Source: Perkinsus chesapeaki ATCC PRA-425 (taxonomy: Eukaryota; Protista; Perkinsozoa). From it: a stretch of 59,678 nucleotides of DNA. The stretch spans positions 1-59,678 of the forward strand of contig JAAPAO010000161.1 in assembly GCA_013115145.1 (NCBI GenBank), in the 5' to 3' direction. The notes beneath the pieces are model-generated. The model was not told the origin of the DNA and did not search any database. It saw only the letters and a program-made list of their open reading frames with translations. Below, piece by piece: positions 8,492 to 49,900 of this stretch. Position 1 is the first letter of the stretch; the number at the start of each line of letters is the position of its first letter. A program made the translations under genes and the position numbers.

Positions 8492-11296
8492 TCAATGAGA
8501 TCGTCCCCTAGTAACCTCGGCTTTGGTCATAGGTTCGAAATCATACCCATCAGTTCTCACAACATTAGCAACTTGTGGTGCGGCTGGAGGCACTGACGGA
8601 TTAGACTTCACTTTGATAGAAGGTGGCGTCATGACCAGATCAAATATAGGGTCTCGGAGGATCTTAGCCTGACGCTGCTGCGCCTCAGGGGCTATCTGCG
8701 CCGGATACCGACGAGACAGTCCAGCTAGCTTCTCAGATTCCTTTTCATTTTCACTTCTATGTTCCCTATGATGATACCGATAATCAGAACTGTTAGGATC
8801 TATATTGGAAGGCGCAGCCGACTGTAGCATTATACACGTGGAAAACTTCTGGTCGTACCTTACAACGATTATAGATGGGCGAAAAAGTCACGACAAGGCA
8901 TATTCCCTAAATTACCGGGTATCCCCGCAGGTCCCATGATTTATAATGACACTATCTTTGAAGTCGTAATGAAGAATAACCCCCACGTACACATTTGCTC
9001 ATACAAACGATTATATACGCGCGAAAAAATCCGACGGAAATCGCTTTGCAGCATCTCACCGAGATGTAACTGATGCTAAGGTTAGAGTCTCAGCTGTGAC
9101 CTCCGCCAATGGCGACTGGTAAGACCGCGATGCATCATGAAAGACATGAGTGCAAACCTAAAAAATACAATAGAAATGCCTCCTGCCGGAATCGAACCCA
9201 CGACCTACTGCATGCATTGCTATACTAGGCAGTGCCGGTATAGTCATCCCATCAGGATTCCGAGTTGCCGCCAAAAATGCATCTGCCGAAGATGCCCCAG
9301 CCGCCACTGGTTGCTGGATCTGCAATAAACGGGAATATAAAAAGCGCTCGCCCAGTCGATCGATTATTACCTGCCCCTGTTTGTGCATGAGAACTACCGC
9401 GGCAGCTTTGGAGGCGGTATCCGGTGGTGCGGCCAACAATGAGGACTTCAATAATAGTGATGGGGCGATAGGGGGCTCTAAGAAAAATCATCATACTTCC
9501 AAACATTGTAACTCAAACCGAGCTCTTTCGCGAAGATATCTTTTGGAACGATATTAGCTAACCCTAGCAGCTGCATAGATTTAAATATAATTAACAGTAC
9601 GAACACTCCTACCAGCTACTGTTGCTTATCAACTTCTATAAACAGCTAGCCGTCAATAAAAGAGTGTCTCAGCTGGACATAACTCATACTCCCTCGAAGT
9701 TCAAGAGCCCAAAGCCCCGTCAGTAATGGGGAAACTGCGCCAGCGGACAATGCCTGCGCCCTAAAGCTGCTAAGCCAGACAGGTTCGTAACCGTACATGC
9801 CGGTCCCAGTGGCATTACCTTGACCATTAGCGCTGCTCGATTGCCCCATATGTGCACCTGGCATCATTGGTATGGTCGGCTCCGGTGGCAGAACCTCTGT
9901 AGTGCCGAACTCGGCCGCCTCCTCCTCAGTTAACTTCAATTGCGGGGCAACCTAACGACACAATCTCCATCAGACATGCTAACAGGTCAGGAATGTGATA
10001 AGTAACCAACTCTCCTTAAGATTATAATAAGACAATGCTGGAAATGCTATCAACCCCAGAATGGCGAACAACGCCTTGCGCCGTGGTGCCGACTAATATC
10101 TTCACAAAGAAAGCACTTCACAAGATCCCGCTGGAAATAGCCAAATCAGCTGGAAAGTGTGGTAACGGAATGATCTTTGCCTATTAGTCCAAGCCTGGCT
10201 GTCTCAGCTCGCCCTCCTTCTTATTACTACCTCCAATGGCTGCGGTATATATGGCCGGTAGTTGGATAAATCAATATAATTAAGTATGGTGCCATCATCA
10301 TCATGTGTTACTGGTTGCTCTGAGGCATACTTCATCTCACCGTCTACATCGAATGCATATTGATGGAATCCTCGAGGAATCTCTACTATCTAACATAAAA
10401 CAACAAATTCATGCTTCAACTTAAGATACACTTCTTTCCCATAGAATTAACCCAAGACGCCTTCCCCTCTATAATGGCAATTTAAGTTCAACCTAAGATA
10501 CTTTTCGATGTTATCCGGTAACTGCCTAAATCGGCCCCTTTTCACTGTCGCTACTACCTGATAGAACTCCTGTCCACTTCTAACCATCGGCAAATGAGTC
10601 TGCCAACTATTAAATGTTCCCACCAAAGATACCCTATGACCATCACCATTCCATCGAAACATAACCGGCACTCGAGGCCTCTCTGGAAAACTGCTAACTC
10701 CTGCTCCTGCTGCAGCACCACCGCCCACTGGTGGCGGTGGTGGAGTAGGTAAAGCAGAGGAATCCACATTAGCAGGGACATGAGCTAGGTCACCACTCGG
10801 TCGGGGCAATGACGGTGTACTCGGCCTGATATAATAAAACTGTATATACTATGAACCTCAGCAATCTTTACTAATCATTATATTCCCCATTATCACAAGT
10901 CGCCTATGAATCCAATTCCCCTTTACATTCTGGAAGCCACTTTAATTTCGATAAATGCTCCATCATGTTATGATCTATAAGTCAACTACCACTGAGACCA
11001 TCATTGATCTCCTCATGTACACACAATCCTGAGAATCTATTTCCGGCTGTTAACCCCCGAAATATGTACCCATGCCCGGGATCGAACCCACGCCCCTCTC
11101 TTCCTCCTCACCTAGGTCGCTGATGATGATGATGCTGCTGTTGTGGTGGTGGCCTTCCCCCTCTATGTTGTTGCCTTTGTTGTTGTAGCCTATTATTATG
11201 CATGATAGCATCATCACTTCTCGGTCTTGTTGCCGCTACTGTCCGCCCCGTCGCCGTATGACCGCCCTGTGATCGGCCCGAAGGATGGTTTCCCAT
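8492..11296 (-). CDS. AMPK/SNF1 kinase beta regulatory subunit (N-myristoylation site, CBM48 glycogen-binding domain, C-terminal ASC domain)
   Basis: MGNHPSG start at 11296; VPVMFRWNGDGHRVSLVGTFNSWQTHLPMVRSGQEFYQ|IVEIPRGFHQYAFDVDGEMKY; EPPIAPSLLLK; LPSIAMHA|VCTHVFHD; YDQKFSTCIML. Confidence 0.92.
9177..9211 (-). other. tRNA-Thr-like 3' fragment forming the 5' part of AMPK-beta intron 9158-9208
   Basis: GCA|GTAGGTCGTGGGTTCGATTCCGGCAGGAGGCA; 26/29 identical to the 3' end of the tRNA-Thr at 55465-55537; no D-arm or anticodon loop upstream. Confidence 0.85.
11065..11100 (-). other. Degenerate tRNA 3' fragment (isotype uncertain, Val-like end) in AMPK-beta intron 1 (10826-11111)
   Basis: GAGAGGGGCGTGGGTTCGATCCCGGGCATGGGTACA; B-box GGTTCGATCCC, starts 11 nt after the GT donor; T-stem imperfect. 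Confidence 0.6.
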
Positions 11297-11550
11297 ATCG
11301 GCCGAAACTACAGTAAATCCGCTCATCATCAGTTTTTCATCCCCAATGAAAACAACGTAGGTCAGATTGGAAATGAGACTTCATCAATTTCTGATATCAC
11401 TAGATTACACTCAGTAAGATACGCATTTTACAACACTCATCGCTCGCTTCTGTACCCACAAACACAATGCAACTTTCCCATTCAGAACTCCCCATTACAG
11501 TTCCTCCTCCCAGAAACCAAACAGTCGTTATACGAAACTGAAACTCTAAT

Positions 11551-14500
11551 TTACTCATGCAGGAAACTAGCAATAGACCACTTCATCATCAACCCTGCCT
11601 CGCCTGTCGCTGCCTCCACCGTATACTGTACCTCCCGATATGTTGGGGGATCCCAAGGCAGCTTACTATGTCGGCCCCTCGCAACCTGAAGCACCAACAA
11701 TTATTAGGAGCTCAGTGGAGGAGTCCATCAACTTAGCAGGGGGATTCCCAGTACTTCCCCGAACTTGAAAATTTTGCGAATATATTTCATTTCAAATAAA
11801 GTTCATCCACCCAAAAACCTTTCCCTTACATAAACCAACTTGGCCCCACTGGGAATGGCAAGACAGAGAGAACGCAAGCACTGCACAACCTAGCAACCAT
11901 AAACTGCAAATCATCTCGTATTAAAATTGAAAAATCCATCCTAAAGTTCACGGACGGGGAGTTGATGCGTCTGGCAACTGACGAGAATGGTTTATGAATC
12001 GAAGGCCTCCTTACGTGGGCATGTATTTCAGTACAAAGCTTCCAATGGTCCAAGTTATTATTGTAATCATCACCATCGAGAAGCTCTACTAAATGCCGCC
12101 AATAAACTGCTCGTGATGGTAATCCTGTTGTTGGACATATAACGTTCATTTTGAACACCTGTTACCAATAATAGCCACATTTCTAATGTAACCAAGACTG
12201 AGACTTCCAACCTAGGCCAATCTCAGCATTATCGAATGGATTACCAATCAGTATCGAAGCAAGTCGAACTATAAGGGACATAGCAGTAGACAGTTTCTAC
12301 TGCTATGTCTCTTATAGTTCGATATTAGTTTCTACCAGAAGCGTAGGGCTGCTGTATTGCCATCGACCAACCTATTACATTATCCGGATTGATCAGCCCA
12401 AACTCCTTCAACTTCTCCCTTTCCAACCTCCCCGTTAGATATCCAGCGAACACCTTAGCTTGTATCTCCATCAACGGGAATGGTATCTATCAACCGCTTA
12501 GCCTTGTACCGCTTCTAATAATATTATTAATAGTAGCATACCGCTCCCCTTTATATAAGGGAACCGTACGCCTTGGTAGGTCCAGAATACCAGCAATCAC
12601 ATATTATTTCCGTACATTTATAAACGATACATTGTACAAAGCTTCGAAGCGTGTGAAACTTTAACCCTTACAATATCTCAAATCCATTACGCCGAAAAAG
12701 CACATCAACAAGTTCATCCTACCATCAACGGAAGGAATGTGTTCCTAACGAGAATGACCGCGATTTCCTCAATAACTCATTTCCTGCCAAGATTCCCTCT
12801 ACAAAGCCCAGTGGGGTTACCCCACACCACAACCAGCCCAATTAGTACCACTCCGCTCGGCAAGCCAATAAACGCCAAAGTCGGATCCTCCGGCCACATG
12901 ATGAGCTCCAATAAATGCTCATCGACTTTTACAGTATCATCCAGGAATGGAAAGTCATAACGGTACCCCGTGCACAGAATGACGGTATCAAATGCTTCCA
13001 GCTCAGAGCGGTCTAGGTGATTCACTAGTGTACCTGCGCACGGCAAGTTCAAATTGAATAGTATGGGGGTGCAGTGACAGGTGACCAGTGATGACCTTCC
13101 TGGCATTGCCCTCAAATTGGGCTTGGGACAATCTCTCTCCTGTGAGCTAAGAGCTGACGGGCAACGCCGCCGCGTCCCAACTCCCACCACTGTTGAGGAA
13201 CAGAGCACAGATGTACTTTGAATCGAACAAATAAAACGGAAAAAAACAATTCAAATGGCAGAAAAAGTGCAAACTTCTTTGCGAATGGAAGGCCGTACGT
13301 GAAGCTCCTAGCAAGGGCCAATCTTCCATCGTTTCAGAAAGGTCCGGTAACTCGTGAGGCGCAGCAGTCACGCGAAACTCTTCAAATCCCCCCCCCTTAA
13401 TGGCCTCCATTCATCAGAACCAGAACGCAATAGAACATAACGTAGCTTTGCTCAGCTTAAAATTAGCATTCTAACTTCTTACACTTTATTAACTATTAAT
13501 CAGAGTAACTAAGACCTTAACACTATTGCACTATCAGATATTACGAAGCTCATATCACTAGCCCTATGTTTTCTCTATGCACACCCACTCTCCAGAACGA
13601 CGACTTCAACAATCAAACCACTTAATAGCAATCCTTCCCCTCTCATCACTACCTTTCTCGCTAACAATACTCTCCCCCTCATACCTCCGTCCAACCACCG
13701 TCACAGATTGCGCTACAAGACCTGCCGCGAATCTTAGCTCGAAGCCAACTCGATCTTCGCGAAGTTGAAACCGAACGCAAGCTACCTATCTTACCAACTT
13801 CATAAGCGATATCTGCCGCGCTCGGACCCGTTCCAATAACACAGACTTTTTGCCCAGTAAATGCCTTCGGTCCATCGTACTCCTTAGAATGTACCTACAG
13901 CTAGAGGTGTCAGAAAAAAAGTAAATACGTTAATACCATATTCGGCAGGTCCTCAAATTCCTTCGGTACATAAGGGACATCAAAGTGACCATTACAAATA
14001 CAAACTGCCGAGAACTCCTCCGACTTCTTCTCGACCTCCCCATCATCCGAGACCTCTTTCCAATGAACTCGCCAAGAACCATCACCTGCCATCACACTTC
14101 ATGTCCCTTAATAGATATAACCCTCTTAGAGTGCACACATCCGGAAATCGTTTCCCATTCGTGAAATTGAAACTTATGGTAAACTTTCTTATATGGGACA
14201 TGAATAGAAATGGGCCTGTATATAACAACGATATGATCGGTCGCATACAGTGCGCTTGCTTTTATTGAAAAAGTCGACTTGGATTGAATCCTTCGGGCTG
14301 AAACTATCAACTGTGAGGGCTATGAGACACGGGGAATCTACTAGTACGACTTTCATGCCAAAACTCCCATCTGTTTCATCTTAAGAGTGAACCCGATTTA
14401 CCATTCGTTGGTGTATACTTTATATTAACATTATTATCACGCACCTACAGCCCAAATTCCATCCGATGCCGCCGCCCTCCCACGAATCCTCAAGCTGGAA

Positions 14501-15400
14501 GCACGCAAGGAGAAACCGGGCCTTCCTAATACTAGTGATCATCGAAAGATATGAAGGATTCTTCCCGCAATTTCCCAGCTCAATAAAACGGTTTCAAAGA
14601 TACCATGGTCAACCTAAGATACTAGGTTTCCCATGTTCTCCAACAGTACCCCGCCTCTCACCTATATGGTCCACTTTAACGACTTCAGCCTTGAACCTTA
14701 TCAACTGCTTTATATCATCACTGAATTCTTCCAGATACCTTCCGATGGTCCAATCCATACCGGCACTGCCCATCCTGGCTCACCGCTGGACATCCTGTCG
14801 AGGCATGAATGAAGGCAAATGTGACGGGAATGCGACGTCACGAAATTGCATCACCTCCTTAGGCAGATTCGTCCTCAGTGTTGAGTACATCGCACCTGAG
14901 TACCACAAGAACCATAAGCAAACTCCTAACGTATTCCTACGCAGTAATTCCCTATTCCTTTATGAAACATCTGAAACATTCTCCTACAGTTGTTGCCCCC
15001 TTCTACTAACACGAAGTAACGAGCTCGACAGGTTGCCCGACTAATCGAGATGGCCGACAGATAATGCCTAAGACGATTCCCGCCCGCGCCCCTATACCTA
15101 CTTCATCCTTTACACAGGTAACTGTCGCGCGCCACTCAACGTGCCCTTATAAGTTACTATTACTAATTTCCCATCCTACCTTTGCCGGCGTCCCCCCTAT
15201 AGTCCCATGCTCCACCGACATTATCACTCTTTTCCAATACCAACACTCGCCTGCTCAAACACTCAGTTCCACCGATTACATCCACTGCCCTACTCAGCAG
15301 CACATTCCCTTATCGTTTTGGCTGCTACCAGTCCTCCAGCTCCGGCCCCTATGATACATACTGATCGAGAGGAATGTGGGGAAGGGGTTATCCAACACAT
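11551..15400 (-). CDS. Flavin-containing monooxygenase (FMO family), multi-exon
   Basis: VCIIGAGAGGLVAAK (FAD motif), VLEKSDNVGGAW, MYSTLRTNLPKEVMQF, FSAVCICNGHFDVP, HSKEYDGPKAFTGQKVCVIGTGPSAADIA (NADPH motif), DTVILCTGYRYDFPFL, PTLAFIGLP. Confidence 0.95.
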
Positions 15401-15651
15401 TCAAATGGTAAAAACAGCACCGATGAGATTCCAAAGTGATCAACGCAAAACTGAAGAGTTCACAGCAAAGAGGATATCATGTTACTGCCAATAGAATCGG
15501 CCCCTAAAAAGTATCTTTATCTGGAGTAAAGTGCATGGTCAAGCTCCCACCTAAAACACATAGCAGTCCTAGCTCTCATCGTAGCAATCGTAGCGCTATC
15601 TGGCTGTGTATTGTCCATGAACCTAGAAGGATAAATCCGTCACTGCGCCGC

Positions 15652-17320
15652 GAAATTAACCGCTTCTACCAGGGATATGTTGTGGTCGGACTCGTCCCAA
15701 CTGTGAGTGTCCCGGGCGACGTGTTGATGAAAAGATACTCATAAATTCTGGAATCGCTCAGATAGAAGAATTGCTGTCCATCTATCAAATCAAGCTCATA
15801 CATCAAATGCACGCTTCAACCTAAGATACTACCCTCGGCTGGTACTTGCGCTGTTGGCGGTGCAGTCCATGGCGATGCCGGATTCGGGGCACTGCGCCAC
15901 AAAGTTCAATTCCCACCAGCCTATCATCGCCTACCTGCACTGCTCGCACAATGCACTCGGTGATGAGGATGTTGGACAATAGGTACCCAACTTAGACGGG
16001 GACGCTGAGGAAAATAAAATATTAACATATATGTCAACGAGAATTCGACCGAGGTAAAATTTGTACCAGTAATAAGCGAACCAGGTGTGATCGGAATTCG
16101 CCTGGTAGTCGTAGGAAAACATTAGATGCTCCCAGAAGCGACGCATTTGATGCGCATCGGAACGCATCGGAATTCCCACAGTATCTCCTCCGCACCAGAA
16201 AGATTCTTCTGCGAAGCTGGATGGCTCCCAACTAATAGGGTTCGATAATAATAACATGCTCAGGGCTAGTACGAAATGTTACGTCTCAACCAACACGCCC
16301 GTTGAATACCCACTCAGCGCTGCAAGCCGATATAAAATAGTTACCGAAAACCCGCTTAGTAACGTCAACACTACCATTCGAGAGTCCCGATGATGAACAA
16401 CAGGCTCCCATTATTCGCCATAATTAGGATATGTCATTTTTCAAGGCGTGCAAGGGTTACAAGCGCCGCTCACTCACGGCCTTACCAAACGGCGCTGAGT
16501 TGAACGCCTGTAGTATCGGATCGCAATCCTCAAAGCATCGTACTCTATTGGATATACAACTAGCACACTCAGTGGCCAGAGCGGCAGGGCTGCTAGGGGA
16601 TACACCTGATGTGTCGGATTGGGGCAGCATTCGACAGGCCGACTCCCTACATTCGGGACAAGACGGCAGATAAGCTGTTGGTACTGCAGGAGAAAATCCA
16701 CACAGTGGCGCTGCTGGTATCTATGCTTGAAGCGTGCACTCTGCACAGAATAAGATACCAATACCTTGTCCGCTACCGGCGAGGATGGTCCCGTTGGCAT
16801 CCTAGGTGATGCATGACAAGTATGTATATCAATCCTAACCGGATCCGCGACTCCAGGTTGAACCTGTCCATATCCCTTAAACCACACTAGCAGTCTCATC
16901 CCACTATAAAGCAGCGTGGGCACTGTATTCGGCCACCCGCACACTTGTTCGAATTAGGTATCGGTATCGGGCTCGAACTGCTATCATGAGACCCCTCGGA
17001 CATGTCCAATGTGAAGGTCGGCGTTGCTGTCAAAGATGCCTTTGCTTCTTTAACTCTCTTGGCAGCTACCTGCTGTTGAGATTTGTCCGCAGCCGTAAGT
17101 ATTCTGTGTGTCCGTGAACGAGCTTGTATCAATCGAAGTAGCTGCAACGACAGCCACTCAATTTCGCACTATAAAGATTCCTTACTAGTCGATGTGAAGA
17201 TCCTCTGTGCCAGGCTCCCCCCTAGCCCAGCCAGCACTAATGCTATCCGTTGTAGCCTCGCAATGTTGCTTATGATAAGGTAAATCTCGCCCTACCCCAC
17301 AGGCGGCCACCATGCCGTTG
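15652..17320 (-). CDS. Multi-exon Cys/aromatic-rich hypothetical protein (ends approximate)
   Basis: Exon frames CAGGRIQCPRCFIVG, HASPRMPTGPSSP, FWCGGDTVGIPMRSDAHQMRRFWEHLMFSYDYQ and WELNFVAQCPNP with GT-AG flanks; family not recognised. Confidence 0.55.
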
Positions 17321-17510
17321 AAGGTAGTTGATGTAAATCTCGCTCGCCCAGCTGATCGATTGGTGACGTAGCTTTGATCACAGTTGGCAGGAAGTCCAGA
17401 CGACAGGTAGTAAGGGTGGTGATGGAGAGGCTACCGCTTAATTACGTTACTAGTCCCCCGTATAGTCCTTGGTGATGTGGTAATTATTGCTCGTGTTTTA
17501 GTAACCAACC

Positions 17511-18227
17511 ATGGCGGTCAAGTACAACAACGTTATCCCTAACATTCACTTCCGCAAGTACTGGCAGAAGCACATCAAGACCTGGTTCGACCAGCCTGCC
17601 CGGAAGCATCGTCGCCGCCTTGCTCGTCAGTCCAAGGCCGCTGCTACCTTCCCCAGGCCCACCGCTGGTCTCTTGAGGCCTGTTGTTCGCCCTCCTACTC
17701 AGAGGTACAACTACAAGCTTCGTCTTGGCCGTGGCTTCACCGTTGAGGAGCTTGCTGCTGCCGGTATCTCCGTCAAGCTCGCCCCTACTATCGGCATCAA
17801 GGTAATAGGGCTAACATAACAAACACTCAATTTAATATTAATCAGGTCGATAAGCGCCGTCACAACAAGTCTGAGGAGTCCCTTGCCATGAACGTCGATC
17901 GCTTGACCCAATACAAGGCCAAGCTCGCCGTCTTCCCCAGAGGCTCCAAGGCCAAGAAGGGTGACACTGCCCGCTCTGAGTTGGTCAATGCCACCCAGAA
18001 CACTTGCAAGGTAAATTAATGTAAAGTAACCTCAGACGTATCTATTGGTTCTCACTCAGACCATCATCCCTGTCCCCACTTCTCGTATTGTTGAGCACGC
18101 TCGTGCCATCACCAAGGAGGAGCGTGAGAGCTCTGCTTACACTACCCTTCGTCAGACTCGCGTCTTCAAGAAGATGGCTCCTAAGCGCGCTAAGGCTGCC
18201 GAGTTGAAGGCCAAGGAGGAGAAGTAA
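17511..18227 (+). CDS. RPL13: 60S ribosomal protein L13 (eL13); introns 17802-17845 and 18011-18059
   Basis: [32 protein letters not shown]...[17 protein letters not shown]...|[20 protein letters not shown]...|TIIPVP...; both introns are GT-AG and restore frame. Confidence 0.98.
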
Positions 18228-18488
18228 AGTGCAGATGATGATTTCGGAAAGGCTTCTTTGGGTGTGAATGCCACCGGTTCGTTGTTCGATCTGTGCGCTT
18301 CTGGTTCCGCCGATATCCCGAGCCTTGAGTTCATTAATTAATCCCTCTCGAGCAGTTCGAAAAGGATCTGGCAATTTACTCAATTTTACTTACTATTTGG
18401 TACTTAGTTTACTTTTAAGGATATTTTCAGCAGGCGTTTTGCTTTATTTTTGTTAACTAACGCAACACAACAATTAATAAACGTGAAT

Positions 18489-19388
18489 TTACTCTTCAGT
18501 AAAATCGATAGATGGTCTTATCTTCTCCACTTTCCTCTCAATGTCCTCAGGCATTTCCATATCACCATAAAGGCAAGCCATTAAAGTGCCGAACAGCAAA
18601 GAGTCGACCTTAGGGTGCCCCTCGAGAGGCTCCAATCCACCATAGGCAACCACCAGCGTCAAAACTCTCCGTACTTCATCCCACAATGCCGCCGGTTCCA
18701 GAACGACATTGTGAGTAACTGCAATGGTGGTGTTCATATTGCGGACTTCATGCAAGCAGCCTCTTGGAATAAACAGGAGATCGCCTGGGTTCATAACAAA
18801 GTGGTAGAGATGACGATAGCTCTTCAGTTCCTCAGTACACTCGAACAGCGGTGGTAGCTGGTCGATATTAGCCGGGGTGCCGCTGGCCATACGCCATTCT
18901 TTCCGACCATGTGTCATCCACATCCACGCCGCTGATGCCAGAGGGTCGATGTGGCACGCTGAACCGGTGCCTTTGGTGCCAATAAACACCCAACGCATCA
19001 CTTCAGAGACCTTCCTGGCGAGCATCGACTTATTATTCAGAAGCATACAGTCCTTTTCAATATCCAACTCGATGGGAGCCTGACAGCCCTGGGCAACATA
19101 CTCCCAACCTTTGATGTGAACTGACCTCCCTTCTTCGATATTCTTCAATGCTTCTTTAACCGACATGAAAGCATCTTTACCGTCGACCTTCGTACCGGCC
19201 ACAGCGTCACTGGCTACTTCCATAACGCCTCTTATAGACGCCCAAGGAGAATTCCCGTCCACAGACCTCCACTGTCGGATGATAAAAGGCTCCTTAGCTG
19301 TACGCATCTCAGCCGGATCGGAGCGCACGGGGATTGCCTCCCACTTCAGTTGGCAGCTGCCTGGACGGCAACCGTTAGGGCAAGACAT
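18489..19388 (-). CDS. JmjC-domain 2-oxoglutarate/Fe(II) oxygenase (JMJD4/JMJD6-like), single exon
   Basis: RWVFIGTKGTGSACHIDPLASAAWMWMTHGRKEW and MNPGDLLFIPRGCLHEVRN, containing the HxD...H metal triad. Confidence 0.92.
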   Translation of the reverse strand: MSCPNGCRPGSCQLKWEAIPVRSDPAEMRTAKEPFIIRQWRSVDGNSPWASIRGVMEVASDAVAGTKVDGKDAFMSVKEALKNIEEGRSVHIKGWEYVAQGCQAPIELDIEKDCMLLNNKSMLARKVSEVMRWVFIGTKGTGSACHIDPLASAAWMWMTHGRKEWRMASGTPANIDQLPPLFECTEELKSYRHLYHFVMNPGDLLFIPRGCLHEVRNMNTTIAVTHNVVLEPAALWDEVRRVLTLVVAYGGLEPLEGHPKVDSLLFGTLMACLYGDMEMPEDIERKVEKIRPSIDFTEE

Positions 19389-19452
19389 TGTGAGCAACTT
19401 GACAGGAATGATGATAAGTTGGCGAGAACACAAGGAGAAGTATGTAAGGAGA

Positions 19453-22126
19453 TCACTGAAAAATAAGATTCAAGGCCTCTTCAACGGTCGGAACTTTTGG
19501 ACGGTAATGTGCGAACACCTGAGGGGCAGCAGTGCGCTGCTGCTTCAACTCGACGGTGGCGGGCGGCTCACCTTGTCTATGTCGCTCTGAGAGATACCCA
19601 TGTCACGCAGTTGCGCCAATCGCTCTTTCGCATCGTTATCCGATGACTCTGCTGCCACCTGGGCCGAGGGACTGAAAAGATTCCTCCGAGGTTGAAAGAA
19701 TGACCTCTAGGTCTTACTCGTCTTCAATGCCGCGAGGAGTATCTGATCCCTCATCGTTCTCACTGGGGTCATCTGTGTAGTAATAACCACACAAAGGATC
19801 GCAGTCTTGAAGGCCGCGGAGGCCTCGGCTCATAAACGCCTGTAGGAAACCATAACGAGGTGGACCGGCCGTATTACGAAGGTAAGATGGAACAAGCAAA
19901 GACTGATATTAATCCGCACTATAAAGCACGCTGAGCGACGCCTCAACACTGTAGTGCTGGAATAACTAAATGCAAGTGGTCCTATGCAGCAGGAGACAGG
20001 GAAGAAATGAAACCTGTCGGGTGTACGAACGAAGCTACTATGAAGATGTACTGCTTGGATGGGCCATAAAAGTTACTGCTTTGAGCGCCGTAGCAGTAGT
20101 ACTGTGGCTCGGTGCCTATCGAACATGCACACCTTACCTTCAATGCCTCAGTTTTCAATCTTCCCGCGGCGAAGTCAAACTCCTTCTGGGGAGCATCCAG
20201 TAGAGGATCAAGCGGATCGAACACCTATCATACCGGTGATGATGCAAAGTCGGACACCCATATCCTTACTTCGACCAATTTAGTGTACACAAATACCCGA
20301 AGATGTAAGCGGTGTGCCGCGTCCGGAACCTAACCAGCAAATGTGATGCCAACACCTGCCAACGAAACCACTGGCATCGATACGCGTAGCTAGAAGCCAT
20401 ATGCCTTCAGGAGCCGCAAGAAGCAAACTCTTATTGATAACATTAGCAGTGCATTCGCCTTGGAATGTACTTTCGTAAATCACGAATGTACGCATGTACT
20501 CGGCATGTATTACGGATCGTAATCTCAGCACCATAGCAACACATTCCTTAGAGGAGTAGGTATGCTCATACCTGTCTCTTATCGGGCCATGTATCATCTT
20601 CCTCTATTTGCCTATGCCTACCACACTTCCTACATACAGTATGCTGCTTGTAATTAATATATCCACAATCTGATCCCCAGCACTCCCATTGCCCGGGCTT
20701 CAGTCTGATAAAGGCACACAGCTGCGAATACTGGCTCCAATAACTACCAGAGGCCCACGGAATGACGGCAGATGTACTAGACCATCTGGGGCAAAGTGCA
20801 ATGTATTAGTAGTACTAACACTAGGAAAATTAAACAATCAATCAACAGCGCCTATCACGTGTGTCATCACCCACAGAAAACGGCCATCATAGAACCGGTC
20901 AAATATAAATATTCAATATATATTATATTATTTTGCTGCTGCGCGCCTGACAGCCGTTTCGGATACTGTGCCAGGGCGACTGACCTTGGATATATGAGAC
21001 CTGTGACAGTCATATGCTTAATAGTTGACTCACAAAATTTCAGCTCCTAACTCGTCGTATTTCGTTAGTTATTGCGAATAAACCGATTGTTCTATTATTT
21101 TGCAGGGGGGTTTATATACCTATCTTGAATAGCTTAAAGACGTCCGAAACACTGGAATGTAGGGATGTAATCAAATACACCAGCCAATCCAGTTGAACTC
21201 CTGTCTACGGAGGCATCAAGCCTCTGAGCCCTCAGAGGTCCCTTCATTTAAAGCTGAGAAGTCGCCCCAGTGCGAAGATACGATGAAAAGATTGTTAATA
21301 ATAACAAATGATCTCCTCGTAAAACGTACCCCTATCAAATACGGTATGGTTCCCTCTACCTACCTGGGCCTCCGTCCATTTTTAATCCTATTATTTATAG
21401 TTGATCCACAACCGGTACACTCGACCGACATAACTGCCTTATTGCAGCTTTCGCACCACCAACCCTTATCTGGACTTTCGCTGACCATCAGGCTGCCAAC
21501 TGAAAAGCGTATCTTAGTTCAAATTGGGCACTCCCCAACCTACCTCCAGTATCATTGTCCACCATACTCACCGGTTTGGAGTTTATCAACGCTTCAATAT
21601 CCTTCGAATCTTGAGCTCGAACCGTGCATTCCACAGCCCACAAAGATACTTACTTTTCTCACATCTGACCGCAGCCTGCTCCTTTCCGCATCCAGTGCAT
21701 ATAACAGCGCTCGCTGGGTTCCGAACGGCGCAGTTGTCGCATTTCCAGAATCTTCCACGAATAGGCACAGCACTCGGTTCCGCCACCCCGGCGGAGATTC
21801 CACCGCCCTTCGATTGAGCCAGCAGCTCCGCTTCCTTCTCAGCCCGCTGCGACGCCGTTACACCAGAGACAATTGTGCCTTATTAAAACACGATCAGAGG
21901 AAAGTTTGGTATGACCACCCATTTGGCTACCCATGTTAACCGTGAGCGAGGTGGCCTTCTTCGGCCAGTTGCCTCTCTGGTACTCCGCCAGAAGTTGGTT
22001 CAAAAAAGGGAACACGAACTTGGGATTTTGTGAGAGAGTGTCGATGTCGTCAACGTTGTCACCGACGCCGTCCGACTCTTGATTAGCCCGCTTCTCACTC
22101 ACCATCTCCATTAAACGTTTCTCCAC
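19453..22126 (-). CDS. Multi-exon protein with RanBP2-type zinc fingers and a C-terminal UBA-like domain (may be more than one gene)
   Basis: FWKCDNCAVRNPASAVICTGCG, WWCESCNKAVMSVECTGCG and QWECWGSDCGYINYKQHTVCRKCG; C-terminal KERLAQLRDMGISQSDIDK|VFAHYRPKVPTVEEALNLIFQ*. Confidence 0.65.
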
Positions 22127-22324
22127 CCTAAAACCAGTTCTTTGTCAGACTATTGGAGGCTCTACCCCGCTCCCTTCCGATCAAATCCACTATATTGTAG
22201 ATGCAGACATGAAGTCATTACCAAGCTTTCAAGGGGCACTGTGACTCTTAATAGGCGCCCATAACTCAATTAAGGGCGCATTATCATTACCAGTAATGTG
22301 ACCCGGTCACATTACCAAAATCAA

Positions 22325-24910: not shown

Positions 24911-24939
24911 GATAGAGTATAACCTCCTGCATGAGCCTC

Positions 24940-27900
24940 TATCAATTATGATACCAACAGTCTATGGCATGTACCAGTCATCAAGGGTACTCTAGAAGCA
25001 TTCGAACCCGAGGACACCTCTAGCGACACCTCTCCATGAGTGCCTACGACGCATTGCCAAAAAGCTGCCTACATCAGAGCAACGGGCCTCGTAGGTATCA
25101 ACGCCAAACAACTTCCTATAGTGCGACAGCGATACCACAATTGCCATCATAAGCAAGACGTCTGTCTTCTATCATTTAAAGTACTCCAAGCAAGTCCAAA
25201 AGGTGGAAATACTATCTTTCAAACGCAGTGTCGTTGTTAGCTTCCCTAGGGCTGACTTCAACCCACCCTCCACTGTCACCATCCAGGCTGCCAGCTCCAC
25301 TCGAAGATGCAGTTTGATTAAGCCATCCATTCGGTTCGGGTCGATCAGAAGGAGAATAACGCAGCCAATACCTTATCGGGAAAAATGCTGCAACCCAGGA
25401 TCGAACCCGGGATCTTTCGATCGCTACGCGTTCCATGTTTTCAATTGACTCGCTGAGCAGTTTGGCCTTATAATCTCACACTTATCATAGGTCCTATCAA
25501 ACACTATCTGCTACCTCCAACTGCAAATCTCCCTTACCCGTTCTTAAATCTCGCCCGATTAAGCGGGCAATCCAACCAATCCCAAAGACCCAGCGTTCTT
25601 CCCTCCACATTGTGATGCACCCTTTCCATCTCGCTGTCATAAAGGAACGTCCCGAATCTCAGGTCGTAGGAACAATCAATCAAAAACAACAGGAATTGCT
25701 CATTAAACTCGAACGCTCCGGGTAGCTGAGAGGGAATCCTGCAGCCGTTCCATCCAACCCAACAGCCCGCTTACCTGAGCCATCAACTGCCATACGCAAT
25801 GCAAGAATTGTAGAAAAATAGGGCTGTACTGGTCAGTTGGAGAGTGACCATTAGCCTGGCGAGTGTGGAACCTGTGCCCTGTCAATAGCCACTCCTGAAG
25901 GGGGGCACAATCGTACAAGGGCAAGATCCTAAGGCCCTTGCCTTTTGAATGAGATGAGAGAAGCCAATCGTTGTACGATAGAACGGGTCCATGATTAACA
26001 TAGCCAAGCACACAATCTGCGAAGTTCTGTCCCATCCGTCAGAGCAATGCACCAGAACGGGTCTAAAAATATCTTCCAAGATCAATATAGGGTCAATCAT
26101 CTCCACCATCCCCGGCGAGATACGTGAATACAGCTCGGAAATCCTGGCGCCCGCAACGTGAAGAATTAGCTTTATCCGCGAGATTATGAATGGCCATAGG
26201 ATCTCCTTTCGAGGAATTATAATATTTCGCCCTGAACCTATTGCCACAAGCCTGTCGACGGGGAGATAGTTTCACCAAAGGTTGCCATCTGTCTACTATC
26301 TGTTACCTGTCATCCATAAGTGTCTTAACAACGAGCAAGCTGGCATGCAACAAAGTCTGGATCAACTCTGACCATTTCGATTGCCAACCATAACGATCCA
26401 AGTCATCAGACCCCGGGTTAGATAGGCAATGCTAGCAAGGCCAACATCTAGAGAGCTCGATCACCTGGACCTCGGCTCACTTGCATGACTAGTAAACGCA
26501 TGGCTTCATGGCTGTCTCGGACATGCTTTATATTATGAACGTCGCCAAAGACTATCTCGGCCATCGTGTAGTAGGAGGAGGACTCGGAACCTGCTGTCAT
26601 TGATAATAAGGTGCTAACAAGGGTAACATATTAATGATAGGGCATATACAGACATTATTCAAATATCTATGTTCTCTATCATTTATATAGACGTATATTT
26701 CGATGACAAGAATACAGCTGCAAAGAGGGGCAGAGATAATAAACAAGTAGATGTTAGATATTATCTACAACTTTATAAATTAAAATTGTTTCAACTCGTT
26801 TATCCCTCAATGTCTAGTTCCATGGGATCACTAGATAGTTCATCAAATTACTTAATACTTAGTTATAATAGTTAATAGGTCGATTAGTTACCGACCATAT
26901 AGCACCGACCTTATAAACCATCAAGCACTAACCCTTACCGTGCCCCTGCATCATATTAGCATAAGCATTAATTTTGGGTCGAGCATCCAGTATAAGCAAC
27001 GGTCGTCTGTCTGGTCCAGAATCAGCGCTGCTCGAGCCTCGATCATCATAAGGCTCCGGGCTAGTTGAACGCGATCTTGGGCACCTAGGCTCCCTCACCG
27101 TGAAGGTAAGTCGAAATCAAGTTGGATTACTCGGAGACATTATCGGAGATGTCGGCAATTTCCTGCAAAAGACGCTCGTCATACGGGGAACGATTGTTAA
27201 ATGCCGACTTCGGCTGTGAGGATCTGATTAACTTGTCACAGTTGTTGACAGCACGCCACTAACCCATACCTCCACAATGCAGCCGGGCACTGCGGAGCAA
27301 ACTTGCCAGGTTTTCTTTGCCGAGGAGACAACCACGATAGAATTGGCAAACGGTTCTTTGACCTATGCTTGGCTGCGTGGATGATCTCCTGAAGACACCG
27401 AAGCGTTTGTGATGGTGGAAGCGTCGAGCATGGGTTTACTGGTATGCCGAACTTCCGCGGTAAAACTATTACAGGGGGGTAGGTTGAACAGAGTTGGAAA
27501 CGACCATTTATGGTTTCATGAACCTAGACAGGTAGGGCATGGGGCCGGATAAGTTGGTGGAAAAATGAAAATAAAACAGTCCGGCAACCCGGAATCGAAC
27601 CAGGGACCATCCGATGACTAATCACTACAGTCGGACGCTCTACCAACTGAGCTATTGCCGGTTACTATAAATAGGTCGTCAAAACGCTCAGCCAGGACTT
27701 GCTCTTATTAGAAAAAACAGACCGTAAATATCTACTGTTAAAGCCTTCGGGTACTTGGATACTCCCATCCTCTCATATTCAACCAACGCATCATAACGGA
27801 ATGTCAATGATGCTCTCTCCTCACTCCTCGTTGACTTCAATGCATCCTTCATGGCGTGCGACGTCGCGAATACATCATCTGTGGAATACATCAACGTCGT

Positions 27901-33580: not shown

Positions 33581-33608
33581 AGTCAACAAATAGCAACACG
33601 AACTTGTG

Positions 33609-38740: not shown

Positions 38741-38760
38741 TATTCATCACTTCCCGTAAT

Positions 38761-39767: not shown

Positions 39768-40187
39768 ATGAGAGTCCCCGCACGTGTACAGTATATTCAA
39801 GAGAAAGAAGAAGGAAGTGCAAAAAAATATCGAGGTGCGTGTATAAGTTATGTCTCATATCCATGTAAATCTGTAGTCTATGTGTGTCTCGTATCAATAC
39901 CCATAATTGTCTATTATGGTGTGTTTCACTCGTCAATCCCCGGAGCCGATTTGCGTATGTCGTTGAACTTGCTCCCTCACAGAACCGACAATCTCTGTAT
40001 TATGCAAGCCCTATCGGATATCGGGCTGTTAGTCTTTGTGGACGAGCTAGGAATACTTCAAGGTGCTCGCAAGGTATGTAAGGATACGGTGACCCTTCAC
40101 GGAGCGCCTCGAACATTCGTCTTTCTCATTCGTGATCAAAAACGCATCTATTGCCTCTCCGCCGAAGTGAGCAAGTTCCACACTTGA
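39768..40187 (+). CDS. Hypothetical protein or remnant of a lineage-specific beta-rich family
   Basis: 139-aa ORF with LLVFVDELG...TFVFLIRDQKRIYCL; context unclear. Confidence 0.3.
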   Translation: MRVPARVQYIQEKEEGSAKKYRGACISYVSYPCKSVVYVCLVSIPIIVYYGVFHSSIPGADLRMSLNLLPHRTDNLCIMQALSDIGLLVFVDELGILQGARKVCKDTVTLHGAPRTFVFLIRDQKRIYCLSAEVSKFHT

Positions 40188-40481
40188 GAGATGAGAACTA
40201 GCAGAGCTCCCAATCGTGGTGGTATACAGGAGATTCTTGCACTTAAGCAGTTACCGTCATATGAGCCGGTCCGAGATATCCGATCGGACGATCCGCTTCG
40301 GATCGAATGGTGTTATAATGGCACTGTCATTCGCGTAACACTCGTATGTGTACCCTCCCACACTGGCGAGCAGCGCTCGATTAACATCAATTAGGTCAAG
40401 ATCGACATGGTATACCAGTATCAGAAACATGTCATAGAAACTTGATCGTAGCAAATGTGAATTCTGTAATCAACGTAAGTG

Positions 40482-46400: not shown

Positions 46401-46661
46401 GAAATAATATAGTGATATAGTGGCAAGTGAACTGAGCTTCCTTGCATGCATATCCTCAATATCCAACCCCCAGTCCAAAACCCTAGTCACTCAACCCTAA
46501 TTTCCTCGAACAGCCCCTCACCTGTAAAAAGTAGCTCCTGCAGAAGAAGAAGAAGTCCTCCTGGCAGCCGCAGCAGTAGCTTGGGCGTATCCTCTTATAA
46601 ACGACTTCAGTAAGACAGGCCGATGCAAGCCCACACTAGACCCAATTAGGGTAGTCATCAT
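40482..46661 (-). CDS. Large multi-exon pentatricopeptide-repeat (PPR) protein, probably mitochondrion-targeted (could be two genes)
   Basis: N-terminus MMTTLIGSSVGLHRPVLLKSFIRGYAQATAAAARRTSSSS (Arg/Ser/Ala-rich, no acidic residues); PPR motifs VEIYTMLIDGLVKSGKYEVAWEQFWDARSFKEIHP and SVLFTVMIKACRKKEECERAMGIFEDMKQSGQFPTDITYQ; TAA at 40482-40484. Confidence 0.8.
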
Positions 46662-46985
46662 TGCAGCACTACAAAACTATGTCAGGAAATATAACCAGAT
46701 AATACCGACCAACAAAATTAGCTATGGAACTTCCCTCATGGAACGCCACTGACCGAAGTATTGTGGTATTGAGTGGCAATCGCTCTTGCGCCACAGTCCA
46801 GTTCTGTTTCTATAGAATCGCCTCACTTGTGTGTTTACCCCAGAAAGTGACTGCAAAAATTTCACAGAAACTTTTTGACGAAAAATAGTCTATTACTGCA
46901 TTTTAGTATTACACGAAGGCATACGCAATACCCCCCAAGTAGAACACTAACATAACGCAACTCGAACCGAGCCGAAACGCAGAGC

Positions 46986-49900
46986 TCAGAAACACTGTGG
47001 CTTCCATTTAAATTGAAGATTTAAAGGAGCATGATCGCTTGGTATGTCTGAATTGGGGAGGGTACCCTGCTTGGTAAGGACGTCAATCGATGGGAGAGGA
47101 TCGGCGGATATACCTGTGGAGGCGGAGCGAAGCTCTAAACGACATTCTTTCATTCCCAGAGCTCGGCGCCAATAACAAGTGCAAAAGAGGTTGTCTCCTT
47201 CCACTGTCACTATGGCCTTAGCTCCCTATCGGACCAGGCGTTTCATACGTTAGTTAAGACAGACAAATTGCGGACGAGAGAACTTGAAGGCAGACAAGCT
47301 CTTAAGCTATTAAATTATACCCTATACACATGATTTAATAAATCGTTATTATAAATGGGAGTGTTTATGATACCATATTTTACCACGCTCGAGTCATTGA
47401 GCAATATTATACTTCTTCACATCTATTTACAATGTTCTTTCAGCTCCTCTCCGACGTGCTTCGGAGTTTCACTTGATTCAAAGCAAACTCAGTCCCTACA
47501 TTCCAAAGAGGCCTGCTTGCTATCCTTATAGAAAACATAGTCAAGACAGCCTTGCCAAGTTGGAGTGTGATTGGTGAACTCCGGTTCGAATCCCAGTAGC
47601 GACATCATGCCGCTCCTGTACGCTCTACCATCTAACAGTGCCAAACGGCCGACTGCATCCTCGCTCACGCCTGGTATCTGGAACTATGTTATACTGTCAT
47701 TCCCGAACGTCCTACTATTTTGTTGCCTGGTCGTAGTGAGACAGGATGGTCGGGGTGATCCACTTCAACTGCACCGCGCGTTAGCAATTCATACCTAGAA
47801 AAAATTTTCTTTTCTGACACAAAATTTCCGCACAGTCAAGAGTGACGCAATTTCTGGTGGAGGATTCTCAGGCTCACCCACTATTACGACAAGAGACACG
47901 TCAAAACGGACATGTCGAAACAGAGGAACTTGTCGAGAACACAGCCCGACGGGGCTTTGATAACATATAGAAACTCGTATTTTCCATTACCACAGTCGAC
48001 ATTGAGTATCGGAATATAAAACTTAATCCACAGTAAGTACCACAACGAAGTACCAAATCGATCGACCGTTTCAAGATTCATTATTGATATCTAGGCGCGG
48101 GGCGTGTAATACGATTTTCCCATGGTAGGTGAATGCATTCTAGTTGTGGTAATATTATCCTCCTCGTAAATCTTGGGTCCCAACTTCACAGCAAACTAAC
48201 ATCTCATCAGAACAACTATTCCTGCTCGGAATCTACTGCGCAGTGCATAAGCCATAGAAGCCAACCCAAGTGTTACACAGCGCTGTCATCTGGGGTACTG
48301 TTGAAATCGCCACCCAACAGAACTGCTGGTCCAGACGGAAGGCTACCTAAGGATACCAGAATCCTCCGGGCACCCCAATTGGAAAAATAATAGCAGAGCA
48401 ACCGTCAGGAGATTTACTTTCGAAGTCCTCCAGTTGGCGAGCCAATAGATACGCCTGAAGCAGCTTGACATCGGGGAACCTGAAAATTAGTAGAGACAGG
48501 GCGAGGTTGATGCTTGCTTTGGACTCCAGAAAAGATGCGTTGTCGCTGCCAGGAGATTCCTGCCGGTGATCTTGTCCCGCAAAACCGCTGCTACACATAA
48601 ATTGAGTTTCTCTCGAGTCTCCCTGTATCTGTTATACACACGGATGAGCTCTTCCCCAGCCGAGATTGCTTACAATGCTCCAGCCAGACCACTCGTCGAC
48701 TGGGCCAGTGAATGAAGATATTTATCCAAGGAGTGACACATCCTAAATTCAGTGGTAGCAAGCGGCTCGAAACGATCAGACTTGCAGAAAATAGCGCAGC
48801 CGTCCTGAAATCAATCGGATCGCCAGGAAATCTTCGACATTGTTCGTAGGCTACTTTCGCTTGAACAGCCTCGTTGATCATAGCCGTCGCCATTCGGTAG
48901 CCACCCTTGGCTTCTAGTGTGCCCTTCAGTATCGGTAGTGTTGTTATGTCTAATTCCTGAGTGAATATAACAACTTCTGACACCAACTTAAAAGGTAATT
49001 TCCCGGAACAGCGGGAGATTCATACGGTCATTAAGAAAAAATTATGAAAATTCGGTTTCTCAGTTTGTAAAACTCCAGCCGATTCTTGCAGCAGAAAAAG
49101 CCTTATTTGCTAGGGAGATCCTTCCAATTGCCCCGGAAGTTCAGATGAGTCTTAATCGGAAATAATCCTTCGGGCTAATGAGCAGGTTATATTCTTAGTG
49201 ACTACCGAAAAGTTCCGACCCCTCCTCAGTGATACCGGTACTGAGAGGAGCTACCCTTACCTGTAGAGCCACAATGTCAGCATTCATCCTCAGAATGCTG
49301 TTGGTTAGATTCACTAATCTTGCTGATGGCGATAGGGCCCTGAAAAGACTCACTTCACCGGATGTCCACTAAAAAGAGCTTCTGGTACGGGAACAATTTT
49401 TCTATCAAAAAACTGCAAAATGCGTCCCCATTGAGGAGATGTTCCTTTATAGCTGCCCTACCTCCTCTTCGGGTTGTTAAAAGCAGGGTCAGCAAGCAAC
49501 CGCTGATAATGTGCAGAGTGGAGTATATTCCACGTTACGAAGGAGAACGTTGAGGTCGCTGCCGCCACGGTCGCCGGGTTGGGTATCGGAAGAGGCGGCA
49601 TACTAGTGCCAATTATAGCTACTATATAATATACACTATGTTGAAGGCATCTAAAGCTACCAAAGGTGTTATATAATATACACTATGTTGAAGGCATCTA
49701 AAGCTACCAAGGGTGTTATATAATATACACTATGTTGAAGGCATCTAAAGCTACCAAGGGTGTTATATAATATACACTATGTTGAAGGCATCTAAAGCTA
49801 CCAATTGTGGTAATATGTACTGCAGCCATTTCATTGCTATGTCACCCGGACACCCTATCGTTGACGTTGAACTTGGATGAACACAACGAGACCAAAGGAG

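Follow-up and report, generated by a model that had tools for sequence, protein, structure and literature searches.

Where does the sequence of a spliceosomal intron come from? To our knowledge, most intron sequence is of unknown origin, and tRNA genes are named as a source in none of the reviews that we searched. The question arises at a locus of Perkinsus chesapeaki, a clam parasite whose genus is the sister lineage of dinoflagellates. Here three predicted introns of two ordinary genes, AMPK-beta and myotubularin, placed by protein homology, begin with the degraded 3' part of a tRNA gene (Table 1). The window, by which we mean the whole stretch of DNA analysed, comprises 59,678 nt of P. chesapeaki ATCC PRA-425 (assembly GCA_013115145.1, contig JAAPAO010000161.1, positions 1–59,678, forward strand). 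We found no published description of introns headed by tRNA 3' parts.

Table 1 Introns, tRNA genes and related features of the window
Feature	Position	Strand	Remarks
AMPK-beta last intron	9158..9208	-	51 nt; GT, variable loop, T-arm, acceptor 3' strand and discriminator of a Thr-like tRNA, T-rich trailer
Thr-like tRNA part of AMPK-beta last intron (fragment 1)	9206-9177	-	followed by a 19-nt T-rich trailer ending AG
AMPK-beta first intron	10826..11111	-	286 nt; perfect B-box/T-arm relic at 11096-11067
Myotubularin intron 3	25372..25427	-	56 nt; third of the tRNA-headed introns; nearly all tRNA 3' part (25421-25386) plus T-run trailer
AMPK-beta intron with multi-copy A-box/D-arm-like head motif (9365-9345)	9320..9370	-	51 nt; intron status by gene finder
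Second copy of A-box-like motif	17341..17361	-	about 150 nt upstream of plus-strand RPL13 gene
tRNA-Tyr(GTA), intact	27580..27661	-	9-nt tRNA intron; sense inside a myotubularin intron
tRNA-Ala(AGC), intact	603..675	-	12 nt behind GT donor 687; host intron predicted
tRNA-Thr(AGT), intact	55465..55537	+	closest window relative of fragment 1; apparently intergenic
EEP-family (CCR4/PDE12-like) coding exon	47500..47677	-	antisense of 47574-47638; outside the class

Protein homology and the intron junctions

We tested the AMPK-beta last intron and myotubularin intron 3 as candidates against an AMPK-beta profile (43 homologs) and a myotubularin profile, respectively. The former ranked first of 77 candidates, with 6.4 bits compared to −1.6 for the next, and the latter first of 105, with 137.3 bits compared to 131.2 for the next and 128.1 for the unspliced sequence. 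Both junctions preserve the residue spacing of the homologs and add no residues. For the AMPK-beta first intron, a stop codon lies in frame directly past the donor, and the P. olseni protein P0001 spans the site, with PR before it and PSTPS after it. When this intron was held out, the gene finder recovered its acceptor and picked 11217 or nothing as the donor. Two P. olseni gene models part exactly at this acceptor; thus the intron position looks old and is apparently shared with P. olseni. All three have GT...AG ends and their removal restores the conserved protein, which predicts them to be U2-type spliceosomal introns.

Our intron statistics (sizes, donors, flanking GT) rest on 40 curated introns, 23 of which are ≤56 nt. 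The tuned gene finder regained 3–4 of 6 held-out introns, and the 76 extra introns that it proposed are weak. Runs X6 and X7, guessed to be RNA, gave 5 and 4 contigs on 8700–28300 and none across the three junctions. In the deposited myotubularin gene model, intron 3 is passed over and a conserved C-terminal motif is missing; in practice, then, tRNA-headed introns escape gene models.

Likeness of the three introns to tRNA

The window was scanned with a covariance model built from its three intact tRNAs and with a sequence-only tRNA 3'-half profile (20 shuffles). The covariance model scored the AMPK-beta last intron at 27.2 bits (E 1e-4) and myotubularin intron 3 at 19.0 bits (E 0.016), and gave a weak score to the AMPK-beta first intron (10.9 bits, E 2.3). 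By the sequence-only profile, these introns reached 24.0, 18.8 and 19.0 bits, with 0 such scores expected in the shuffles, and they are the sole strong tRNA 3'-half matches in the window outside intact tRNAs (18.8–24 bits). All three relics are in sense with their host, and the variable loop begins 0, 13 and 10 nt past the GT in the AMPK-beta last, AMPK-beta first and myotubularin introns, respectively, close to the 0, 11 and 5 nt given in a preliminary description of this locus. The probability of finding three relics so placed at intron heads is about 5e-6 to 2e-5. They span 30–36 nt and carry no CCA; a genomic-type T-run follows.

Fragment 1 is identical to the intact tRNA-Thr at 26 of 30 bases, in agreement with the Thr likeness proposed in that description, and the intron-3 relic matches the window's tRNA-Tyr at 23 of 30. 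The T-stems are indeed imperfect, as had also been suggested: pair 51-63 is G opposite G in all three relics, whereas all five positions pair in the intact Tyr and Ala genes. The B-boxes have 0, 0 and 1 mismatches to the consensus, and 0.35 perfect B-boxes are expected by chance per window. The introns fold no better than shuffles (z 0.37 and 0.24 for the last and first AMPK-beta introns, −0.96 for intron 3), and Rfam assigned none of the three isolated sequences to a tRNA family; the nearest hit of that kind was a tmRNA T-arm at 5.1 bits. With no 5' half, a broken 51-63 pair and no call by ARAGORN or Rfam, the relics do not qualify as functional tRNA genes.

Several other assignments were considered. 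A tRNA-derived SINE has an A-box plus B-box head, a body, a tail and flanking duplications of 7–20 nt, and a copy of an LTR primer-binding site adjoins an LTR and measures about 18 nt with its CCA. The relics show no A box upstream of the B-box and no shared body, and they are 30–36 nt long, end without CCA and have a T-run behind them; the initial judgement that neither class applies therefore holds. A permuted or split tRNA was excluded by the absence of a 5' half from these introns, and an exonised 5' half by the agreement of junction spacing with homologs. Recursive splicing at the variable-loop AG/GT was likewise excluded, since the intron starts 4 nt earlier and none of the 40 curated introns has a GTC donor.

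A second copy of intron 3 and related places in the assembly

A diverged second copy of myotubularin intron 3 has lost 25408–25415 (8 nt, the T-stem 5' strand) in a deletion that stops at the B-box, and keeps 25380–25407 (28 nt, including the B-box) with zero changes among the differences listed. In this comparison, which covers one locus without control introns, 0 of 28 core nucleotides and 9 of 35 flanking third codon positions are changed among the differences listed (P 2e-4); at the whole-exon rate, the same differences give P 0.017.

Fragment 1 has matches at four other places in the assembly, with heads that are 83–96% alike, and three of these places end at the same GT. Together with the three window cases, they support the proposal of a recurrent intron class headed by tRNA 3' parts. 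One of these places agrees with fragment 1 at 22 of 23 positions, compared to only 20 of 23 for the intact tRNA-Thr. Their flanks are unrelated and their acceptor strands and trailers differ; separate tRNA gene copies likewise differ in both flanks and trailers. The short repeats seen at the AMPK-beta last intron and myotubularin intron 3 are absent from the acceptors inferred for two of the places. A metagenome scan with the fragment-1 head returned 3 loci without an ARAGORN tRNA, one of which (L001) combines a tRNA-like head with a non-tRNA tail and has no tie to Perkinsus.

A possible family of A-box-like relics

Besides the tRNA 3' relics, sequence likeness points to a possible family of A-box relics. 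The motif at the head of a further AMPK-beta intron, in frame and stop-free, matches tRNA-Tyr at 14 of 21 positions, which is not significant alone. Its second copy agrees with it at 18 of 21 positions and with tRNA-Tyr positions 6–26 at 16 of 21 (0.07 expected). The core is kept between the copies though a B-box is absent, and thus the constraint may not concern TFIIIC. The last two AMPK-beta introns, 165 nt apart, possibly carry neighbouring B-box and A-box relics.

The preliminary description held that the introns contain tRNA 3' parts only and that the window has no orphan T-arm elsewhere. We found no matching 5' half within the relic introns and no strong orphan T-arm elsewhere in the window; however, an orphan A-box-like relic exists, and this family weakens the restriction to 3' parts.

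Intact tRNA genes near donors

The intact tRNA-Tyr sits 4 or 24 nt past a donor (27665 or 27685) in the same myotubularin gene as intron 3, and the best-scoring protein model takes 27685, a weak donor. ARAGORN without intron mode names this gene as His; with -ps80 the program gave 94 calls, mostly spurious, and only the tRNA-Tyr re-reading was taken from it. The donor before tRNA-Ala scores 4.55, which is within the normal range, and an atlas search with the gene near it gave no match. Upstream of tRNA-Thr there is no good donor. This tRNA has GG where the AMPK-beta last intron has its GT; thus that GT did not come from this tRNA, and the donor looks pre-existing.

A fourth candidate lies in an exon

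Four introns in three genes had originally been described, of which the three above, in two genes, stand. The fourth, 47574–47638, had been assigned to a small plus-strand gene. It scored 8.6 bits (E 9) with the covariance model and 12.7 bits (1.0 expected) with the sequence-only profile. Its perfect B-box (47583–47593) is formed by codons G-F-E-P of a CCR4/PDE12-like exon on the minus strand, read in reverse. We reject the candidate as a chance match, and the small plus-strand gene with it. The exon matches PF03372 positions 177–204 with E 0.006, below the curated cut-off, and an upstream exon matches positions 137–161, in order. Matches of the gene in the PDB were to PDE12 only (E 0.4), and a homolog search with the exon gave nothing at E ≤ 1 among 21 candidates.

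Discussion

We hypothesize, with a probability of about one half, that these introns are what is left of larger introns in which a complete tRNA gene formerly lay just behind the donor, and that they have been kept for their sequence and not for a fold. tRNA genes would land in or near intron heads, and a deletion, possibly using the AG common to GTAG or GTGAG donors and the variable loop, would then join the donor to the variable loop; the tRNA 5' half would be lost, and the GT would be that of the old donor. The 3' part of the tRNA gene, with its T-rich terminator, would stay as the body of a 45–56-nt intron; the tRNA 3' side may be kept because the terminator serves as a pyrimidine tract, and GT plus 30 nt plus a 14–19-nt trailer amounts to the usual intron size. 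Selection would subsequently keep the sequence, most likely the B-box, as a DNA site of the extra-TFIIIC type or as a splicing element. Heading an intron with a tRNA tail in this way would be an undescribed means of building tiny introns.

In favour of a donor-anchored deletion, the intact tRNA-Tyr shows the starting arrangement, intronic and in sense, in the same gene as intron 3. There is no target-duplication rule, as GT follows 12 of the 40 curated introns anyway. Some tRNA genes are present in tens to hundreds of copies in P. marinus (PMC3706591). On the other side, the intron around tRNA-Ala is no more than a prediction and tRNA-Thr does not sit at a donor, and the closer related place (22/23) and the start shared by three of the four related places also fit a spreading family. 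We found no intermediate in the window with part of the tRNA 5' half still attached. The relics were found via their B-box, and therefore its retention is partly circular; we found no literature joining Perkinsus and TFIIIC.

Capture, in which break repair or a reverse transcriptase inserts into an exon either tRNA-gene DNA or the 3' half of a pre-tRNA (with its trailer and still lacking CCA), and only inserts that are spliced out exactly survive, is a possible origin that we lean against. It would explain the precise junctions, the missing CCA, the T-run trailers and an insert size equal to the modal intron size. Anticodon-loop cleavage and reverse-transcription stops would fall around tRNA positions 37–44, where the relic 5' ends cluster, and a GT or GTA recurs at the two ends of the AMPK-beta last intron and of intron 3. 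These repeats of 2–3 nt are, however, at background level and unseen at the acceptors inferred for two related places, the position of the AMPK-beta first intron looks common to P. olseni, and intact tRNAs occur in comparable positions. The closest tRNA lacks the donor GT, against the earlier suggestion that the captured tRNA supplies it. Alternatively, a single master intron headed by a tRNA 3' part, or a few of them, might have spread as an introner or SINE-like family. Five places, counting the window, have the fragment-1 head and four of them start at the same GT, and all three window cases have the G51 lesion; but these cases resemble different tRNAs, acceptor strands and trailers differ between places whose flanks are unrelated, and neither terminal nor target repeats occur. 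Furthermore, a published screen for introners assigned none to P. chesapeaki, P. olseni or P. marinus (PMC9860276, supplement table 4), and we regard such a family as improbable.

That the relics work as RNA, either as mascRNA-type substrates of RNase Z/P or as split-tRNA halves released from the lariat, seems to us very unlikely. The acceptor strand and discriminator are retained, and modelling allows a small cloverleaf-like shape for intron 3, yet its fold is not above shuffles and no matching 5' half occurs in the same introns. The decay of intron-resident tRNA genes, already put forward in the preliminary description, is the better supported of its two models, except in its RNase Z-substrate version, which we disfavour because the T-stem is broken at 51-63 in three relics and its 5' strand is deleted in the second copy. 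We give equally little credence to scars of Dada DNA transposons. Dada families of P. marinus insert into tRNA-Ile, Leu, Gly and Tyr genes, but the site, where PMC3706591 states it (tIA, tIB, tY), is the A box. An insertion there would leave almost all of the tRNA 3' of it and not 30–36 nt, and no transposon end is seen beside the relics.

If tRNA back ends recurrently become the bodies of minimal introns, Perkinsus would offer a datable series from intact intronic tRNA through truncated copy to decayed relic, in which a known ancestral sequence would serve as a direct reference for intron shrinkage or birth. If the B-box and not the fold is constrained, this would suggest a role for Pol III factors within Pol II genes of the lineage that is sister to dinoflagellates. 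A broader and rather doubtful extension is that tRNA-gene pieces are a standing source of new Perkinsus introns with their promoter boxes under selection, B-box and possibly A-box relics forming a genome-wide TFIIIC docking grid in protein-coding genes.

Relation to known systems

Intact tRNA genes and tRNA pseudogenes are known inside introns of protein genes. Like the relics, they are tRNA sequence without CCA and with a T-run terminator in a Pol II intron, as tRNA-Tyr is here; in contrast, the relics start at the donor, nearly fill two introns and recur with the same start at unrelated places. ETC sites are bound by TFIIIC without TFIIIB or Pol III. Introners also place related sequence at the head of introns in unrelated genes with precise junctions (PMC9860276; PMC11282704, each in its accessible part), whereas the relics are tRNA-derived from several isotypes, have divergent trailers and lack terminal inverted repeats or target-site duplications, showing only 2–3-nt repeats at background frequency; tRNA is unmentioned in the accessible main text on introners in PMC9860276. 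Introns from foreign DNA, in the accessible parts of published accounts, are likewise precise with at most very short repeats, but tRNA is never named there as a source, and here gain is only a candidate. Dada elements of P. marinus similarly break up tRNA genes in this genus, but as far as the accessible text of PMC3706591 goes their insertions fall in the A box and a transposon stays behind, and the relics show neither. The relics have the conserved B-box without a tRNA gene that marks ETC sites, although their detection is partly circular, and in the accessible text of PMC11346459 such a B-box, likewise outside any functional tRNA gene, is also preserved for its sequence and not for a fold. 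Compared with those sites, the relics, which are candidate sites, are visibly derived from tRNA and head tiny introns.

tRNA-like heads of three introns

In the preliminary description, four introns were said to open with the 3' part of a tRNA (variable loop, T-arm, acceptor 3' strand and discriminator), and this stands for three of them, here introns 1–3. A covariance model built from the 3' ends of the window's three intact tRNAs scored intron 1 at 27.2 bits (E 1e-4), intron 2 at 10.9 (E 2.3) and intron 3 at 19.0 (E 0.016). With a sequence-only profile without priors the scores were 24.0, 19.0 and 18.8 bits, none being expected in 20 shuffles. The next-best matches (13.4 and 12.7 bits) were no better than chance and fell antisense to coding exons, which agrees with the earlier remark that no orphan T-arm lies elsewhere in the window, and a profile with B-box (TFIIIC site) weights set by hand left the same gap. 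An Rfam search of the isolated introns 1–3 gave no tRNA-family match. The proposed Thr identity of intron 1 was borne out (26/30 identical to the window's tRNA-Thr); intron 3, previously called Phe-like, matches the window's tRNA-Tyr at 23/30 (28/36), and intron 2 matches any window tRNA at 18/30 or fewer. As had been noted, all three lie in the sense orientation of the host transcript. Their variable loops begin 0, 13 and 10 nt past the GT, a placement with a chance probability of 5e-6 for 116 donors or 2e-5 for 200. Such relics head 3 of 40 curated and 0 of 76 predicted introns, the curated set (34 from the deposited myotubularin model P0003, three of them swapped for homology-based versions, and six from AMPK-beta) being enriched for the finding's own genes. 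Several other intron heads or a post-stop stretch show faint variable-loop/B-box likeness; their profile scores are all within chance, and they are possible older relics.

Features of the window and their positions
Feature	Position	Strand	Remark
Intron 1, AMPK-beta	9208-9158	-	
Intron 2, AMPK-beta	11111-10826	-	
Intron 3, myotubularin	25427-25372	-	
AMPK-beta intron directly upstream of intron 1	9370-9320	-	
Fourth proposed intron	47574-47638	+	rejected
EEP phosphodiesterase gene, CCR4/PDE12/angel-like	46986-49601	-	motifs in order across predicted exons
Intact tRNA-Ala	603-675	-	ARAGORN
Intact tRNA-Tyr	27580-27661	-	
Intact tRNA-Thr	55465-55537	+	
Diverged copy, run X4	9111-9410, 10351-10354, 23475-23490, 24551-24569, 25308-25457		contigs aligned to window
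Faintly tRNA-like heads	21653-21610, 26480-26432, 28367, 20137, 25008	-	
21-nt motif	17361-17341, 9365-9345	-	
Motif of about 19 nt	15830, 14623, 10502, 10430	-	
Motif of about 19 nt	16716	+	
Intron-end motif	13897-13917	-	T-run, CTGAC, then AG
Intron with tandem array	28367-27879		AT-rich unit, roughly 18 nt

The splicing of introns 1–3 is inferred from homology, because the spliced contigs of two RNA-like runs lie away from their junctions. For intron 1, all nearby GT-AG pairs were scored with a profile built from 43 single-domain homologs of AMPK-beta, chosen from 150 matches; among the 77 candidates it came first with 6.4 bits, the runner-up reaching -1.6. Its removal restores the H-x4-H motif as HA|VCTH, the unspliced frame hits a stop, and it was predicted at all three settings by a gene finder whose training set left out AMPK-beta. 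Intron 3 likewise ranked first, of 105 GT-AG candidates, against a profile of 25 of 68 non-Perkinsus myotubularins (137.3 bits; next 131.2, unspliced 128.1), and its removal yields WNA|YW, which keeps the register of the family. Against it, P0003 spans the region with one 816-nt intron (25479-24664), thereby losing a conserved C-terminal myotubularin motif. That model, deposited as Perkinsus chesapeaki myotubularin, is encoded in the window at 100% identity (1554 aa; 30909-19456) and is an apparent fusion of several genes. At intron 2 a stop directly follows the donor, and the P. olseni protein P0001 spans the junction as PR|PSTPS. Another P. olseni model coincides with P0001 starting precisely from the junction residue, which suggests that P. 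olseni has an acceptor there too. The gene finder used donor 11217 here at two settings and predicted no intron at the third.

A fourth proposed intron is coding sequence

The fourth example, placed in a small plus-strand gene, proved false: the minus strand there is the open frame of an Exo_endo_phos-like coding exon. This frame matches Pfam Exo_endo_phos positions 177-204 (E 0.006), and the exon upstream matches 137-161 (E 0.002), both below the curated cut-off and the two collinear. PDB matches of the exon were to PDE12 only, over the EP-x-x-TN motif (E 0.4), and a homolog search with it gave no match. The proposed plus-strand acceptor scores under all 40 curated acceptors. The window holds five perfect B-boxes against 0.35 expected (tRNA-Tyr, tRNA-Thr, introns 1 and 2, and this site); the last is the reverse of codons G-F-E-P and is what chance would supply.

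Probable retention of sequence rather than fold in the relics

The T-stems are imperfect, as first described: pair 51-63 is G opposite G in all three relics, and the intact Tyr, Ala and Thr tRNAs pair all five positions. A function of the relics as RNA, which is very improbable, sits poorly with this break and with the finding that all three introns fold no better than shuffled sequences.

Run X4 contains second, diverged gene copies at depth 22-29 (main copies, 42-47), in which 104 coding nt of myotubularin carry 14 changes and 126 nt of AMPK-beta carry 8; they could represent a homeolog that has diverged, or else another lineage within the run. The exons flanking intron 3 differ at 9/35 third and 5/69 other codon positions. 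Within the intron, three changes lie near the 3' end, and a deletion of 8 nt takes the T-stem 5' strand, halting at the first B-box base. Among the listed differences, none falls in the 28 nt of 25380-25407 (P 2e-4 if the third-position rate applies, 0.017 under the rate for whole exons; one locus, without control introns). The unchanged 28 nt together with the T-stem deletion, at this one locus, suggest that selection acts on the sequence and not on the fold.

Other repeated intron motifs

The relics had been described as 3' parts only, which holds for introns 1–3. A 21-nt motif resembling a tRNA A-box/D-arm matches tRNA-Tyr positions 6-26 at 16/21 in its 17361-17341 copy (0.07 expected; 5'-side profile). 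Its sibling, which heads the AMPK-beta intron directly upstream of intron 1, is 18/21 identical to that copy and 14/21 to Tyr, not significant alone. Runs X1 and X4 hold multiple copies of the motif; the diverged copy retains the core but has a different spacer after it. Therefore the relics may not be confined to tRNA 3' halves, and constraint on them need not mean TFIIIC, whose binding would itself be conjectural.

A second intronic motif, of about 19 nt, recurs in sense at four sites, all within curated or predicted introns, and once in antisense orientation (0.2 expected); it is common to many other contigs and is not tRNA-like. The intron-end motif also recurs in several other contigs of the assembly. 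The metagenome locus L001 (360-513) has a tRNA-like head, then a non-tRNA tail, gives no ARAGORN call and is unrelated to the relic introns; it resembles an insect tRNA-derived SINE.

Origin of the introns

The intact tRNA-Tyr, called His by ARAGORN, reads as tRNA-Tyr(GTA) once a 9-nt intron is taken into account; a 60-nt contig overlying this gene reaches a depth of 3360, where single-copy DNA has about 110. The gene lies in sense inside a myotubularin intron, 24 nt behind a weak donor that gives the best protein score, or 4 nt behind a better one. A typical donor sits 12 nt upstream of tRNA-Ala, whose host intron is predicted only, and tRNA-Thr has no typical donor upstream. Capture of tRNA 3' halves, with the tRNA supplying the GT, had been one of the models offered. 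However, the closest intact tRNA carries GG at the positions of the intron 1 GT, and short junction repeats are not above background (12 of 40 exons begin with GT), so we regard capture as doubtful. Since an intact Tyr gene also lies behind a donor, the simplest account, to which we give a probability of about 0.5, is deletion from a pre-existing donor to the variable loop. Such a deletion might run via an AG common to both (16 of 40 donors start GTAG or GTGAG) and would leave the GT followed by 30 nt of tRNA sequence and a terminator trailer of 14-19 nt with a putative function, together as long as a usual intron (of the 40 curated introns, 23 are ≤56 nt).

Beyond the window, assembly contigs aligned to 9110-9410 gave six records of run X1: the source contig, three others, and two pieces of 31 nt that match another motif of this stretch. 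The aligner makes the count of related places a minimum. The three others, at about single-copy depth, match fragment 1, the tRNA-like head of intron 1, at four places (34/41, 31/35, 30/33 and 22/23). Of these matches, three stop with the donor GT or extend a single base past it, and for the fourth a GT lies 7 nt upstream. Their upstream flanks are unrelated and not tRNA-like, and at three places a T-run and then AG follow, giving candidate introns of about 45, 46 and 60 nt. That the introns are a spreading family is unlikely. Scars of Dada elements, DNA transposons that target Perkinsus tRNA genes, are as improbable as an RNA function; Dada and tRNA copy numbers are treated in PMC3706591.

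The literature covered, which leaves out most subscription papers, yielded no description of tRNA-derived spliceosomal introns or of this feature in Perkinsus, and no P. chesapeaki genome paper was among the matches. PMC3101222 puts the majority of P. marinus introns below 100 bp, and rows of the supplement to PMC9860276 score three Perkinsus species as without introners; portions of PMC11282704, PMC9399869, PMC3443670, PMC11346459 and PMC13685798 were also drawn on. Relic-headed introns are real, recurrent and apparently undescribed, the preliminary description having overstated them by one false example. They are best placed between intron-resident tRNA relics, introner-like repeats and extra-TFIIIC (ETC) sites.
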